A DNA stretch of 64,000 nt. It comes from Bdellovibrionota bacterium (GTDB lineage Bacteria; Bdellovibrionota_C; UBA2361; JBGSMV01). Position 1 is the stretch's first letter; each line of letters opens with the position of its first letter. The stretch is from contig JBGSMV010000059.1 of NCBI GenBank assembly GCA_041739995.1, positions 90,429-154,428 on the forward strand, in the 5' to 3' direction. A model generated the notes under the pieces. That model was not told the origin of the DNA, searched no databases, and was given only the letters and a program-made list of their open reading frames with translations. Positions 57,523 through 64,000 of this stretch are shown here, in pieces. The position numbers were made by a program, and so were the translations under genes.

Positions 57523-58926
57523 CTATCGCCAAATCCGCCAGCCCCTGGCCCCATTATCGGAATTCTCCCCATCATCGGGACCGAATAGTTCGGCTTCCGT
57601 CTCACTACCCACCGATTCCCCCGCAGCCGCACGTTCCGCTCGAACTTGGTTCAGTGTCTCTCTAAGCACCTCTGCGCGTTCCTTGTTGCCCTGTCGTTCG
57701 CGCAGGGCAACTAGTGACACCAATGCAGGAACGCTACGGGGCGAAATTTCAAGAGCGCGCTCAAAACTCTCTCCGGCTTGATCTAATTTCCCGAGCTCCA
57801 TCATCGCCCAGCCGAGAGCACCATGCGCCCGCACATCATTTTTCTCAATGCGAAGCGCTTCTCTCGCGCTGTCCGCCGCATCGGAGGGGCTATGATTATC
57901 GAGTTGTATTAAAGATAAATTCACCCAGGCCATCAGATTTTTTGGGTCGGCCTCAACGGCTCGTCTTAAGGCAAGCTCCGCGTGGGCACTCTCACCGTCA
58001 CCGTCCAGGATGGACCCGAGTGCTACCTGCACACGCGCATCGCCCGGAGCAACTTCCGCCGCCCGCGCGAAGGCTTGTTTTCCCTCTTCAATCTTCCCAT
58101 TGGTTCGTAAGCTACGAGCTAAGTAGAGCAATGCATCGACGTTACGGGGCTCAATCTGAACTGCGCGCTGGTAGGCAAATAGAGCGGCCTCTTGTTGACC
58201 TGCGCGCTCATACAGCACTGCAAGGTTAAACCAGGTAAGGAAGCCCGAACTATCAATCCCTTTGGCACGTTCCAAGTACTCAAGTGCTTGAGCACGATTT
58301 CCCTGGGCTTCAGAAAATACCGCCAAAGTCTGAAGCGCTCGCGTGGAATTCGGGTCTCTCTGAAGTAAACGCTCGATGCTGTCTCTCGCATCCTCCGACC
58401 GCCCAAGGTCGTGCTCGGTCATGCCGATCGCAAGCAAATAGGAAGCATCATCGGGCTTTAAGGTGCCCGCTTCCTGAAACGAGGCGAGAGCCTCAACGTT
58501 GTTGCCCTCATTCCGCAGCGCCATCCCCAGACCATAGTGAGCTTCGGAAAGTGTTGGGCACTTTTTGATGGCGTCCTTGTACAAGCTCTTGGCTTCCGAC
58601 CCTGCCGAGCTTGCCTTCTCCATTAACTGAGTGGCCTCGTAACAGCTCGCACTCGACTTCTCAGTCCCCTGGACTCTTCTCTCTGGAGTCGACGCCGTAT
58701 ACCCATTGGTCTCTTTCTCGGAGGCAGCGCTCGCTGAAGAGCTTGATTCGGCAACGCTAGAACCACAAAATAACAGCCCCCCCGCACTGGCGCACAGCAC
58801 TACCGCAAGCACTCTCGTCATACGAAAGCACGGAAACAAAACATATTGCTCCAGCTTGCCGACTATCATCACTGCTGCCTCATGGAATCCTACCAGCGGA
58901 CAAAAAAAAGAAACTTTATCACTCAA
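57523..58926 (-). CDS. Exported tetratricopeptide-repeat protein; start uncertain
   Basis: Hydrophobic signal-like stretch followed by multiple TPR units (AHYGLG, TWFNLAVLY, AHGALGW). Confidence 0.88.
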   Translation of the reverse strand: MSDKVSFFCPLVGFHEAAVMIVGKLEQYVLFPCFRMTRVLAVVLCASAGGLLFCGSSVAESSSSASAASEKETNGYTASTPERRVQGTEKSSASCYEATQLMEKASSAGSEAKSLYKDAIKKCPTLSEAHYGLGMALRNEGNNVEALASFQEAGTLKPDDASYLLAIGMTEHDLGRSEDARDSIERLLQRDPNSTRALQTLAVFSEAQGNRAQALEYLERAKGIDSSGFLTWFNLAVLYERAGQQEAALFAYQRAVQIEPRNVDALLYLARSLRTNGKIEEGKQAFARAAEVAPGDARVQVALGSILDGDGESAHAELALRRAVEADPKNLMAWVNLSLIQLDNHSPSDAADSAREALRIEKNDVRAHGALGWAMMELGKLDQAGESFERALEISPRSVPALVSLVALRERQGNKERAEVLRETLNQVRAERAAAGESVGSETEAELFGPDDGENSDNGARGWRIWR

Positions 58927-60251: not shown

Positions 60252-60769
60252 CGCTAGAAATCGAGTAACTGGTCACCAAGTTCTAAATCCGTATAGCAAT
60301 TCTGCACAAGGAAGGGGCACATGGGTCATATTGACGCTGATACTTCCATCTTGTCAGCCCCTAAACGGGGTAGCTATTTTTCGTGACCAGTTAGTTGTTG
60401 TCACCCCCGATTTGCCCCGCAAATCGACCCCTGAGGGGCATCTCGCCCGAGTTGTGCTGACTAGTTACGAAATCGAAAGTGGCTGAGCATAACATGGGCT
60501 CACCTAGGGATGAAACGCCTAGCAATCTGCTGATTTTCGCAGCAAAAGTTCTCAAGCATCGACCCGGGACCCGATAGAGAGGGGCGCAGAAATAGCAGAT
60601 TGGTCCTTCCAGAGGACCCGCCTTGAAACCTCACTACCGCACCTCAATCGAGCTGCACGACAGGAGTAAAATAGAGCCTGTGAAATCTTCTGAAAACTGC
60701 CAACATAGGATATTTAGGATTCACAGGAGATTTCGCCGCCATTGGTGAAGTTTCTGACAGGGAGTTTGT

Positions 60770-61900
60770 GTGACGAGCAAGAGTGACTCAGAAAAGTCCC
60801 CTCTAGGTGCAGCAGCGGGACAATCTGGCATCCTGGCTGAGACCTTAGCTCATTCCGCTCATTCAGTACTCCTACTCGACACCACTGGGCAGATACTGTT
60901 TAGAAATTCAGTGGCGACAAAACTGCTCGGAACAGGTGGTCTAGAGAGCATGCCCCTGTTTCGAGAACCCGTTCAACGCCAAATACTCCAGACCAAGCAC
61001 TGGAATTGTGTGGAACTGCATGCGCCTCCGGAGCGCCTGGGCCACCTGAGACAGGTCGCCGTAGTCGTGGAAGTGGGCTCCCTCGCGCCTTCCACCCAAG
61101 AGAGCAGTGGCGCGACAAATCTGTGCCTATTGGTAATCATTCCCCCTCAGGCAGAGCAGCAATCCTCACTAGCTGACAGAGAGGAGTTTCTCGCCACGGC
61201 CGCACACGATCTTAAGAACCCATTGAGCGCCATTTTTGGATACGCCGACACCCTCGTCACCTCAGTGCCGGGAAAGGAAATTTCAGATCGTACGCGCAGC
61301 ATGGTTGCGAAAATGCGCAGCATCGCAGCACGCTCAATTGATTTAGTAAGAAACTATCAACAGCTTGCTGAACTGGCCCAATTAAAACCCTCCTCCCCAA
61401 ATGCCCGCACCGATTTGAATAAGGTTATTAAGAACGTCGTTGAGGAGACCTTTCGCGAGGACGAGGATTCGCTCACCGTGGTATTCGTCCCAATCTCTCC
61501 GCCCGTCCTGCTTCGACTTGAAAAACTCCCGCTCGAGCGCGTGATTGCGAATCTGTTCGGAAATGCTCTTCGCTATTCGCCGCCTGGGGGCACCATCACT
61601 ATTTCTGTAACCAAGAGCTTAAGCGACTCACTGTGGCCAATCGAAATTCACCTAAATAATACCGGCACTCCAATACCTGCAGAAGAGATACCTAAGCTCT
61701 TCACGCGCAGATACAGAGGGAGCACCAGTACTGGTACCAGTGGCACCGGATTGGGGCTTTTTATTGTGGACGGGATTATAAGCCGCATCGGAGGAAAAGT
61801 TTCAGTTCAAAGTACCAAAGAAGGTGGCACGACCTTCACCATCCATCTTCCGACCAGCTGCGTCATTGAAAACAGCGTCGTGGAACCTGTTCCATCCTGA
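60770..61900 (+). CDS. Orphan cytoplasmic sensor histidine kinase
   Basis: PAS-like start (LLLDTTGQILFRN), H-box AHDLKNPL, N-box NLFGNALRY, G2 box GTGLGL. Confidence 0.9.
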   Translation: MTSKSDSEKSPLGAAAGQSGILAETLAHSAHSVLLLDTTGQILFRNSVATKLLGTGGLESMPLFREPVQRQILQTKHWNCVELHAPPERLGHLRQVAVVVEVGSLAPSTQESSGATNLCLLVIIPPQAEQQSSLADREEFLATAAHDLKNPLSAIFGYADTLVTSVPGKEISDRTRSMVAKMRSIAARSIDLVRNYQQLAELAQLKPSSPNARTDLNKVIKNVVEETFREDEDSLTVVFVPISPPVLLRLEKLPLERVIANLFGNALRYSPPGGTITISVTKSLSDSLWPIEIHLNNTGTPIPAEEIPKLFTRRYRGSTSTGTSGTGLGLFIVDGIISRIGGKVSVQSTKEGGTTFTIHLPTSCVIENSVVEPVPS

Positions 61901-61916
61901 AAGCGTGGTTTGTGTA

Positions 61917-61929
61917 ACGGAGTGGTCTC
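61917..61929 (+). repeat. Left copy of 13-bp direct repeat ACGGAGTGGTCTC flanking the MNIO operon
   Basis: Identical to 63831-63843. Confidence 0.6.
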
Positions 61930-61964
61930 GGAGGAACAGAGCTCCTCTCCATGGCCACCAAGTT

Positions 61965-61986
61965 AAAATTCCCGGTTAACGGGATT
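61965..61986 (-). terminator. Possible weak terminator for the MNIO operon
   Basis: TCCCG/CGGGA stem followed by ATTTT on the minus strand, between convergent genes. Confidence 0.35.
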
Positions 61987-62011
61987 CGTCACTTGAATGC
62001 CGTTTGAGACC

Positions 62012-62608
62012 CTATTTATCTACTTTTTTGAGCTTTCCGCCGGGCAGCACTAGATAAGTATCGCCGCCAATTATCACAGTGCCTATGCTACCATCTGCGC
62101 CGGGCGTCGCCCATCCTCCCATCCCGCATGCGGGACAGGGATCTCTCGTCGGTGCGACCTCGACCTCGCTTTGCCTAAGGCGAAGCACTCCCTTTTGGGT
62201 GGCCAAGTTAATCTTCGCGGAGTCCTCTGATGTAACTAGTAAGGATACGGCGAGCGTAACTCTACCTTCCAATGCAGGTCCGTTGACGCTATTAACAGGC
62301 TCGATAGATAGCAGTCTTGCTCTCCTCGCGATCGAAGAGGTTCCTGCCCGATCCCGACCTTGGAATAACACGTCTACGTGCTCCATAACTCGATAGCGGA
62401 CTTCGGTTCCACCGATTGATTCAACATTGAACCTCGACACTTGGTAACCTTTGGGGACGGAAATGTTAAATGGGTTGGACGCGGCAGTTGGACTGGTTGA
62501 TGGACCCGCAGTAACCGCTGGCTGAGCAAGACTCTCAGCATTGGCCGCCATCCCCGCACCGTTGAGCACTGCTGCGATCAGCAACAGTGTTTTCTGCTGG
62601 AGTTTCAT
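62012..62608 (-). CDS. Secreted protein with partial CpaB/RcpC-like domain and internal CPACGMG motif; candidate MNIO substrate
   Basis: Sec signal (MKLQQKTLLLIAAVLNGAGMAANA); VPKGY, HVDVLF, VSLLVTSEDSAKINLATQKGVLRL resemble CpaB; CPACGMG at residues 158-164. Confidence 0.75.
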   Translation of the reverse strand: MKLQQKTLLLIAAVLNGAGMAANAESLAQPAVTAGPSTSPTAASNPFNISVPKGYQVSRFNVESIGGTEVRYRVMEHVDVLFQGRDRAGTSSIARRARLLSIEPVNSVNGPALEGRVTLAVSLLVTSEDSAKINLATQKGVLRLRQSEVEVAPTRDPCPACGMGGWATPGADGSIGTVIIGGDTYLVLPGGKLKKVDK

Positions 62609-62835
62609 ATATCGCTCTCGGTTTGGAGTCGCACTTCATCATCGTAGAGCGCATGGTACTTAAACGTTTTCAAGGCCATCTCTACGAAGGCAGGCGTGAG
62701 TTCATAGCCCTTAAAGTATGAGGCGACATCAGTATTAGTCCGAAGCCGAAGGATAGCCTCCTCGTACGATGAACTTGAAAAGAGAATTTCTAAGTAGCAG
62801 GCTTGAAACTGAGACATTTGTTCACGCTTCTCCAT
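62605..62835 (-). CDS. Small helical partner protein of the DUF692 enzyme (76 aa)
   Basis: Overlaps both neighbours (14 nt upstream, ATGA downstream). Confidence 0.65.
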   Translation of the reverse strand: MEKREQMSQFQACYLEILFSSSSYEEAILRLRTNTDVASYFKGYELTPAFVEMALKTFKYHALYDDEVRLQTESDI

Positions 62836-63691
62836 TTACAATCCTCCGCATTCGCAAAAAATCGCATTGAAATTGCTGACACTGCTCTTCGCTCTGTAAT
62901 GCGTGAGGGAGCTGTTCCAACACAACCAGGTGGAGCGAAGGCGTGCGCGATATAACGCTGTCAAGTAGGTCGAAAACCTCTTCCGGAACGGGCCCATCGT
63001 GAGTATCGCATCGTAACGTTGTGGTGGACCGATCGACCTCAACGTCCGCAAAGGATCCCCCCGAGATATGAATTTCACGAACGCGCTCTAAGGGGTACGT
63101 CCGCACTATTTCCTCAGCAGAGCACTTAAAATTTATTGCTTGGCAGTATATGTTATGAAGATCCAGAAGTATAAACCCATCAATGGGCTGTACCAAATTG
63201 AATAGAAATTCCCCTTGTCGTTTGACTTCGTCGAGATTAAAGGCAAGTGCCAAGTTCTCAATGCCTACTGGTCCGTTAAAAACACTTTTCAGCAGTTTTA
63301 AATTCTCCTGCGTGACTTCAAGAAGCTCGTCTGTGAGAGGTAGTGGCATAGGCGCACCGTGATGAAAATCGCCGCCACGCATGAGACCAAAATGCTCGGT
63401 AAGATGTTCATAGTTTCGCACAGCAAGCTCTGAAGAGAGGAGCGCTCGCCACTGGTCATGATGCTCAGCAATTCCTGCAGAACACACAGCGTAGCGCACG
63501 CTGTGGGCATATAGTGCACGTGCTTCACTGTAATCGTTCACCACCGCCACCAAGGTCGGATCAGGCTCCCCCATCAGTTCCGGCATATCAAACGCCCACT
63601 CGATCGCGTCAACCAACTGATCACGAAACAGAGGGAACGCCGAACTCAACACCCGCGTGTCCGGTATAAAGGAAAGTCCCGAAAGAATCAT
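62822..63691 (-). CDS. DUF692 / multinuclear non-haem iron oxidative enzyme (MNIO), ChrH-like
   Basis: Iron-ligand motifs LYAH, LTEHFG, VGIENL, LLDLHNIYCQ, VREIHISGG, DTHD, VVLEQ. Confidence 0.92.
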   Translation of the reverse strand: MILSGLSFIPDTRVLSSAFPLFRDQLVDAIEWAFDMPELMGEPDPTLVAVVNDYSEARALYAHSVRYAVCSAGIAEHHDQWRALLSSELAVRNYEHLTEHFGLMRGGDFHHGAPMPLPLTDELLEVTQENLKLLKSVFNGPVGIENLALAFNLDEVKRQGEFLFNLVQPIDGFILLDLHNIYCQAINFKCSAEEIVRTYPLERVREIHISGGSFADVEVDRSTTTLRCDTHDGPVPEEVFDLLDSVISRTPSLHLVVLEQLPHALQSEEQCQQFQCDFLRMRRIVNGEA

Positions 63692-63830
63692 GGCAGGTAA
63701 ATCGGCAAAAATGAGCTCCGACTAAATGAAAATATAGAAGCCTGCACGCTGTCAATCAGACAAAATGCCCCTCAAGACCCGGGCAACCGCTCAGTCTAAA
63801 CAGAAACGGGTTGGGATTATAAAACGGGGC

Positions 63831-63843
63831 ACGGAGTGGTCTC
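63831..63843 (+). repeat. Right copy of the 13-bp direct repeat; part of hairpin GCACGGAG...CTCCGTGC (63829-63861)
   Basis: Identical to 61917-61929. Confidence 0.6.
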
Positions 63844-64000
63844 AAGCAGCACTCTCCGTGCGATAAGCCTCATAAAAAAGGTTACCAAAGAGAAGCTGTT
63901 TGAGTGGTTGAAGCCTCATAATTCCAGTTACCGAACTTTTATAAGGTTCTGGAAATATGAGAGAAATAGTAGGTTTTGACGAGTTAAAGCACCGCTACTT

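Follow-up and report, generated by a model that had tools for sequence, protein, structure and literature searches.

Introduction

Which protein does a ChrH-like oxidative enzyme modify when the gene coupled to it encodes not a short peptide ending in the core motif, but a secreted domain protein that carries this motif in its interior? The question is raised by a stretch of 64,000 nucleotides (nt), hereafter the window, from a Bdellovibrionota bacterium (assembly GCA_041739995.1, contig JBGSMV010000059.1, positions 90,429 to 154,428 of the forward strand). At the extreme end of the window, which is also the end of the contig (G000:C39:154428), lies a minus-strand operon of three overlapping open reading frames (ORFs), encoding an oxidative enzyme (MNIO, dependent on multinuclear non-heme iron) of 289 amino acids (aa; 62822..63691), a protein of 76 aa (62605..62835) and a protein of 198 aa (62012..62608, including the stop codon) with the motif CPACGMG at residues 158-164 (62117..62137), followed by 34 more residues. 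An earlier note on this DNA had described the three overlapping genes, the position of the motif, the tail behind it and the presence of exactly two cysteines in the 198-aa protein, both within the motif, all of which is borne out by the ORFs and their translation. We consider it probable that the operon is self-contained, comprising a split MNIO of the ChrH/DybH/MelH type, its separately encoded helical subunit (Hc) and, as the substrate, the co-transcribed 198-aa pre-protein.

Results

The three genes of the operon are translationally coupled, with a 14-nt overlap of the MNIO and Hc genes and a 4-nt overlap (ATGA) of the Hc stop codon with the start of the 198-aa gene. The 289-aa protein is identified as an MNIO by its match to PF05114 (residues 36-259, E 6.7e-30, 104.7 bits against a cut-off of 25), and the best NCBIfam model is NF050165 (MNIO_ChrH) with 282.7 bits, compared to 85.2 for BufB, 70.5 for HvfB and 50.8 for ApyH. 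The match spans model positions 3-283 of 363 and stops there because the last domain is encoded by a separate gene. From 3,775 candidates, 1,508 homologues were obtained at E <= 1e-3; the 120 homologues listed fall into two length classes of about 290 and about 375 aa. Among the matches listed, the nearest protein is 58% identical, the Chryseobacterium chryseobactin maturases are 42-43% identical, and named enzymes of Chryseobacterium, Hymenobacter and Adhaeribacter lie in the range of 42-45%. Both the model scores and the 43% identity to a chryseobactin maturase thus agree with the earlier description of the enzyme as ChrH-like.

The same note had seen all expected iron-ligand motifs. For DybH, the positions mutated as iron ligands are reported to be H65/H102, D179/H210 and D228/H230 (10.64898/2026.10.27.762324), and all six have counterparts in the same sequence motifs of the 289-aa enzyme, namely H63, H100, D177, H208, D229 and H231. 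The first four DybH ligand numbers are matched exactly by a Dyadobacter homologue, and the six ligand columns are invariant in 23/23 aligned split enzymes. In a tree of 134 enzyme cores, built with a quick method and midpoint-rooted for drawing only, the enzyme falls into a split-enzyme clade of four sequences (SH-aLRT 98) adjoining the fused clade of Bacteroidota, separately from the phylum's four other enzymes and not with the cyanobacterial or melainabacterial sequences. On sequence grounds, the enzyme is assigned to the ChrH/DybH/MelH subfamily, of which it represents the TIM-barrel core without the C-terminal helical bundle. A second MNIO gene is found on another contig of the genome (G000:C27:5715-6497, L001; 354-aa open frame, 354 bits to PF05114) and presumably belongs to another MNIO subfamily.

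The 76-aa protein had been recorded in the earlier note as part of the operon and left unexplained. It has no Pfam or NCBIfam hit, and a word-indexed homologue search returned only the protein itself (1 candidate). All members of the ChrH-like subfamily are reported to carry a C-terminal helical bundle of ~7.8 kDa, which in Cyanobacteriota is a separate protein, MelHc; MelA1 is modified by MelH only with MelHc co-expressed, and MelH and MelHc co-purify (PMC13056109). Compared with the alignment of 26 fused enzymes, the single 76-aa protein matches columns 322-374 of 382 (hhalign probability 78%, E 1.7e-5). Equivalent small ORFs lie 3' of the phylum's four other ChrH-like enzymes, and the profile of all five proteins matches columns 317-378 with a probability of 97.6% and an E-value of 4.8e-12. 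The AlphaFold2 (AF2) model is a four-helix bundle with a mean predicted local distance difference test score (pLDDT) of 82 and a predicted template modelling score of 0.66. The 76-aa protein is therefore the C-terminal helical bundle of the enzyme, separately encoded in the manner of MelHc.

A degenerate DNA pattern for CPACGMG occurs at one place only in the 3.81-Mb assembly (81 contigs, 91% complete). Among 75,864 stop-to-stop frames of at least 30 aa, 37 contain C..CG.G, three contain CP.CG.G and a single one contains the exact motif, and this frame is found two genes downstream of the genome's sole ChrH-type MNIO, so that a chance occurrence beside the enzyme is excluded. One other frame with CPACG.G is an artefact, being out of frame, lacking a methionine and overlapped by a 232-aa ORF. 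The motif comprises the full CPxCGMG core with a DP flank, as in DybA-type precursors, and residues 149-164 align with the last 16 positions of the model NF050125 (ChrA_rel_RiPP; E 0.0014, 19.3 bits against a cut-off of 40). With its 198 aa and 34-residue tail, the protein differs from the short peptides ending in the motif by which ChrA/DybA precursors are recognised. A search of the genome for a canonical ChrA/ChrI pair, as suggested in the earlier note, gave neither a frame ending in CxxCGxG (0/75,864 in all 81 contigs, contig ends included) nor a ChrI-type gene (0 matches to PF08592 in the 91%-complete assembly), and no other candidate substrate was found in the assembly. A secreted tetratricopeptide repeat (TPR) protein of 467 aa with a signal-peptide-like N-terminus (57523-58926) was considered as a MelA1-like substrate and rejected, since a CxxCG motif is missing from its end and two unrelated genes separate it from the operon.

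What kind of protein, then, carries the motif? The N-terminus of the 198-aa protein (MKLQQK, a hydrophobic stretch, ANA/ES) resembles a Sec signal peptide by inspection, predicted to comprise residues 1-24 with cleavage after ANA (62537..62608, minus strand), and AF2 places a helix at residues 4-17; a lipobox cysteine is absent. A phmmer search of 1.84 billion representatives gave seven proteins at E <= 1e-3, the query included, while the word-indexed homologue search (785 candidates) returned the query itself only. The sole full-length homologue found is a protein of 199 aa from a 2,039-nt contig (P0122; 46% identity, E 2.7e-31), which has a similar signal-peptide pattern (ASA/EE), carries CPGCGMGGW at the same place and keeps a similar tail. 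The five further matches are CpaB-like proteins of 212-306 aa, four of them of 292-306 aa (E 4e-5 to 9e-4). The profile of the two motif proteins matches CpaB-like proteins over residues 51-198 with an hhalign probability of 99.1% (E 5.3e-19), and the profile of all eight proteins retrieves RcpC (9gzr) from the PDB at E 2e-7, whereas the Pfam RcpC model itself gives 16.2 bits (E 0.01), under its cut-off of 28.8 bits.

The AF2 model is confident for residues about 50-148 and 171-198. The former constitute an RcpC D2-like domain (62165..62461, minus strand) with a pLDDT of 82-89 over most of the block, the latter a C-terminal beta-hairpin (62015..62098, minus strand; strands 176-180, 183-187 and 193-195, pLDDT 71-81), which aligns with the C-termini of six CpaB-like proteins and is conserved in P0122. 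With Foldseek, 9gzr_A and 9gzr_B were the top matches (E 1.5e-3 and 4.1e-3). Since Foldseek alone gave no match at E <= 0.001, a second look with VIA-align was needed, in which RcpC 9gzr_A reached a Z-score of 8.8 (root-mean-square deviation 3.1 A over 96 residues), compared to 5.7 for the next entry. These results agree with the resemblance to CpaB/RcpC proposed earlier. Neither a SAF/D1 domain nor an N-terminal transmembrane anchor is present in the 198-aa protein, for which no SAF hit was obtained and whose alignment starts at CpaB residue ~137. Consequently, the protein is the C-terminal half of a CpaB, consisting of the D2 domain, the L3 linker and the beta-hairpin, with a signal peptide in place of the anchor and SAF/D1.

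The genome also encodes a CpaB paralogue of 295 aa with SAF and RcpC domains, located between a TadZ-like ATPase and homologues of CpaF, TadB and TadC. This tad locus lies on another contig, and the 198-aa gene lies outside any tad/cpa operon. The Tad-type pilus locus (G000:C47; L111 4608-11642) comprises a ParA/MinD-like TadZ, the CpaB (SAF+RcpC), a CpaF-like T2SSE ATPase and two T2SSF proteins; it is preceded by PP2C phosphatase, FHA and Ser/Thr kinase genes and followed by an FHIPEP (FlhA-type) gene, and the stretch examined showed no secretin gene. At C64:58821-59120 lies a third CpaB-like frame, which is more distant.

The motif lies in the loop of residues 150-170, modelled with a pLDDT below 50 between the two confidently folded parts, and in two alignments CPACG-MG occupies the columns of the conserved linker segment ITIDDLLG of CpaB-like proteins. 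Its internal position in a linker, as stated in the earlier note, is hence supported by both the model and the alignments. The motif is kept in the homologue P0122. For RcpC, residues L261, D264, L266, L267 and Q268 of L3 are reported to pack on the neighbouring D2 domain, RcpC without L3 is monomeric, and the hairpin, modelled as completing a sheet of the secretin N-domain, is required for Tad function (PMC12307814). The spacing [I/L]-x-x-D-x-L-L-[G/Q] fits ITIDDLLG, from which we infer that the ChrH core may take the place of the oligomerisation latch, with the docking hairpin kept.

The operon is rare in its phylum. The ChrH model finds matches at E <= 1e-40 in 5/124 genomes of the phylum, none of which reaches the cut-off of 600 bits, and in 0/4 other genomes of the family. 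In a genome of the same genus (93% complete) both the enzyme and the operon DNA are absent, with only short matches to the neighbouring kinase gene and to the end of an insertion sequence (IS, see below), and the DNA pattern for CPxCGMGGW occurs in 1/124 genomes of the phylum. This rarity in phylum, family and genus, together with the position of the enzyme in the tree, suggests a separate acquisition of the operon.

About 125 nt upstream of the start of the enzyme gene, a promoter-like site was found by consensus match only (TTGAGA, an 18-nt spacer and TATAAT, 11/12 matches; 63816..63845, minus strand), with three such sites in the region compared to 1.9 expected in shuffled sequences. A terminator-like hairpin with a T-rich run, likewise a mere consensus match, follows just 3' of the 198-aa gene (61970..61984, minus strand). 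The operon is bracketed in both intergenic flanks by a perfect 13-nt direct repeat, ACGGAGTGGTCTC, located by repeat search at 61917..61929 downstream and at 63831..63843 upstream (both plus strand), the upstream copy overlapping with the -35 hexamer of that promoter-like site. These are its only two copies in the 3.8-Mb assembly, and the repeat could mark the seam left by an inserted cassette or serve as a shared protein-binding site. Among the sequencing-run contigs covering the locus, no joint skipping the operon, which would indicate a form without it, was seen. On the side away from the contig end, the next gene is a convergent histidine kinase gene, followed by an aminotransferase and the secreted TPR protein, the latter two with no visible link to the operon. 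Window positions 60500-64000 are present as contigs of at least 99% identity in four runs of one study, labelled as biofilm or hot-spring metagenomes, one of which shows a T>C difference at 63153; the four runs do not provide independent support because they are possibly the source samples. Among the sequencing runs, no RNA run covering the operon stretch is listed.

Discussion

In this study, we asked what the split ChrH-like enzyme at the end of the window acts upon. The closest parallel is the MelA1/MelH/MelHc system of 'Candidatus Melainabacteria bacterium SJ512', which shares the barrel with a separate ~8 kDa bundle, the lack of a ChrI-type partner and a full-size substrate protein that bears a secretion signal at its N-terminus and has CPACGMG as its core (PMC13056109). 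Secreted protein substrates of 30-40 kDa are reported there, among them the 34-kDa MelA1, which was modified. MelA1, however, is a TPR protein with the motif at its extreme C-terminus (PMC13056109), while here we find a 198-aa protein of the RcpC-D2/hairpin type, whose gene lies downstream of the enzyme genes and in which 34 residues folding as a hairpin follow the motif. An embedded core that is nevertheless processed is known from ArlA/ArlH of Archangium (Myxococcota), where the CPACGMMM of ArlA yields a mixture of -4 Da and methylated products (PMC13056109). In contrast to the canonical CPACGMG inside a domain protein observed here, ArlA is a peptide of ~6.4 kDa with CPACGMMM (PMC13056109). 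With ChrA/ChrH(/ChrI) of Chryseobacterium and DybA/DybH of Dyadobacter, the operon shares the subfamily, the core motif and the ligand set, but ChrH/DybH-type enzymes are fused (about 365-385 aa), and their precursors of 50-100 aa are encoded upstream and end in the motif; DybA-type peptides are moreover lipoproteins, unlike the 198-aa protein with its lack of a lipobox cysteine. The missing ChrI had been considered unusual in the earlier note. This view has to be given up, because both DybH and ChrH are reported to act without a partner, with ChrI being dispensable (PMC13056109). With RcpC/CpaB (PDB 9gzr; PMC12307814; PMC13170226, preprint version), the 198-aa protein has in common the D2 fold, the C-terminal beta-hairpin and sequence homology, including that to the CpaB of the same genome; it differs by the lack of a transmembrane helix, of SAF/D1 and of a tad operon, and by the exchange of the L3 segment ITIDDLLG for CPACGMG.

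We propose a model in which the 198-aa pre-protein, still in the cytoplasm, would be bound by the MNIO-Hc heterodimer at its flexible loop 150-170. The thiol of C161 would be oxidised to a thioaldehyde and the backbone rearranged to a hydantoin, and a small macrocycle would be closed with the thiol of C158, which makes the CPACGMG core the predicted site of macrocycle and hydantoin formation with a net change of -4 Da. S-methylation would possibly come next (+10 Da if methylated). The pre-protein would then be exported by Sec and its signal peptide removed, leaving a mature 'mini-CpaB' made of the D2 domain, the modified linker and the hairpin, with neither membrane anchor nor SAF/D1.

Several points weigh against this proposal. 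The chemistry, the need for Hc and the export after modification are carried over from published relatives, and the replacement of the L3 latch is read from the linker columns of the MAFFT and hhalign alignments and from the quoted residue list of RcpC. The enzyme with its 282.7 bits does not reach the equivalog cut-off of 600 bits of NF050165. The 76-aa protein is the most divergent of the five aligned Hc proteins, being without the W-E/D-P-x-M and KKW motifs that the other four carry, and for this protein alone the hhalign probability of 78% has to be counted here as well. Furthermore, the link between a CpaB-type motif protein and an MNIO rests on one locus. We surveyed the 80 best-matching ChrH-like loci from named genomes (7 split, 72 fused, 1 unclassified), and in 76 of these the region upstream of the enzyme contains one or more frames that have CxxCGxG at their end; the 4/4 other loci of the same phylum likewise have short upstream precursors with a C-terminal motif. 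Our locus is thus an outlier both in the position of the motif and in its gene order, with the substrate gene downstream of the enzyme. Finally, as the contig ends inside an IS and the genome is 91% complete, an upstream precursor was possibly cut off or left unassembled.

Four of the surveyed loci lack such a frame: one of them breaks off at the enzyme, another carries a Cys-to-Tyr variant, and the last two show nothing. Internal CxxCGxG motifs were found in only two short, distant frames, which are probably chance matches. A scan of JGI metagenomes with the two-sequence alignment gave 408 pattern stretches, three of which were confirmed; all three are ordinary short precursors ending in CPACGMG beside ChrH-like enzymes, and 0/3 are CpaB-like. 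A complex prediction of MNIO, Hc and substrate residues 45-198, run without controls, gave scores of 0.20 and 0.13 against a mark of 0.32, which weighs on neither side of the question of binding. Two further loci deserve mention in their own right. In a metagenome-assembled genome of a Planctomycetales bacterium (L102:87-983, JAGQPS010000120.1), a frame of 262-299 aa that has CPPCGMG at its end and no Pfam domain at E <= 0.1 lies directly 5' of a split ChrH-like MNIO and constitutes a protein-sized substrate candidate outside Cyanobacteria. In Chryseobacterium phosphatilyticum ISE14 (L090:3737-3982), the ChrA-like precursor 5' of a fused ChrH ends in CPAYGMG, with tyrosine in place of the second cysteine, which was reported to be essential in the DybH study (10.64898/2026.10.27.762324); it may be a decayed or variant precursor.

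The 198-aa protein might alternatively be a long precursor, in which D2 merely serves as leader or scaffold and a protease frees, after modification and export, a small macrocyclic peptide that may or may not include the tail. Leaders and followers are the classical logic of peptides made on the ribosome and modified after translation (RiPPs), the motif sits in an exposed, protease-accessible loop of the AF2 model, and most precursors of the family are short, as seen from the 108 frames of the 76 loci with a median of 70 aa and a maximum of 262 aa. We nevertheless regard this as quite unlikely, since no protease or exporter gene was found in the operon and MelA1 is reported as a modified intact protein (PMC13056109). 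In addition, the D2 fold and the hairpin are conserved both between the two known members with their 46% identity and with the CpaB proteins, and because both elements are conserved, it is the whole 198-aa protein that we argue to be functional.

It is considerably less likely still that the true substrate is a canonical short ChrA/DybA-like peptide encoded upstream and lost or separated by the IS, with the CpaB-like protein being unmodified or a fortuitous neighbour. Both the upstream order of precursors in 76/80 loci and 4/4 same-phylum loci and the state of the contig end would be in line with such a loss. The last 140 nt of the window (63861-64000) are the end of a multicopy IS starting 170 nt 5' of the enzyme gene, for which there are 14 BLAST hits at 100% identity across the genome, and 12 of these fall at contig ends. 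It encodes a transposase of 393 aa with an rve integrase core (E 5.9e-9; start codon at ~63957, plus strand), and a full copy is found at G000:C77:4688 onward (L110). The contig depth is 41-90 over the IS compared to about 3-5 over the operon, and 63860/63861 is the meeting point of several different loose ends; the presence of the multicopy IS accounts for the break of the assembly 309 nt 5' of the MNIO gene. Against a lost peptide stands the exact seven-residue core in a coupled neighbour gene, present once in the genome and conserved in P0122. Moreover, the 170 nt of unique DNA 5' of the enzyme gene hold the promoter-like site and no ORF, and no frame ends in CxxCGxG in any of the 81 contigs.

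Hardly credible is a third reading, in which the CxxC pair remains without modification and forms a thiol-disulfide or metal site in a periplasmic CpaB paralogue, the MNIO having another role or none. The genuine CpaB paralogue of the genome does have two cysteines around its C-terminal hairpin (SDCEG...YCVK), so that the motif protein is not alone in carrying cysteines in this part of the chain. These are, however, located at columns other than those of the CPACGMG cysteines; the CPxCGMG core is complete, has its DP flank and corresponds to the end of the NCBIfam ChrA-related model, and every ligand position is kept in the enzyme. A metal-binding or redox role, as suggested in the earlier note, is possibly to be considered for the motif site.

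Returning to the co-transcribed 198-aa protein as the substrate, a function can be proposed only tentatively. The macrocycle would stand in for the L3 'latch' that clamps neighbouring RcpC subunits, while the secretin-docking hairpin would be retained. With the latch replaced and the docking hairpin kept, the mini-CpaB might therefore have its place of action in the periplasm, at or close to the Tad pilus machine, which is speculative and the weakest step of our proposal. The wider idea that RiPP-type backbone chemistry was recruited to rebuild a part of an envelope machine, with a macrocycle and hydantoin replacing the L3 latch of a soluble mini-CpaB, is in our view unlikely. As the structure and the partners of RcpC are known, it is testable whether the modified linker affects oligomerisation or Tad binding.

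The earlier note knew of no description of this architecture, which holds for one part of it. Split enzymes, partner independence, protein substrates and embedded motifs were already published in 2026 (PMC13056109). New are the CpaB-type domain protein as host, the core in place of a defined functional segment, the folded tail behind the motif and the gene order. A CpaB-type MNIO substrate was not found in the literature searched, the supplements and figures of PMC13056109, which possibly list such substrates, lying outside that search, and CpaB or RcpC have 0 occurrences in the MNIO landscape paper PMC12452194.

For the enzyme family, the operon would widen the known tolerance to a folded element of 34 residues after the motif and to a substrate gene located downstream, two features that would escape mining rules built on short upstream peptides with the motif at their end. 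What the ChrH/DybH/MelH product does physiologically is described as undefined for both peptide and protein substrates (PMC13056109). The 198-aa host protein, in comparison, comes from a family whose structure has been solved and whose partners are known, featuring the RcpC D2 ring, the L3 latch and the contact of the hairpin to the secretin. If the wider idea of a rebuilt envelope machine is true, no earlier MNIO modification would have had a defined structural target, and a first clue to the purpose of the ChrH product would be at hand.

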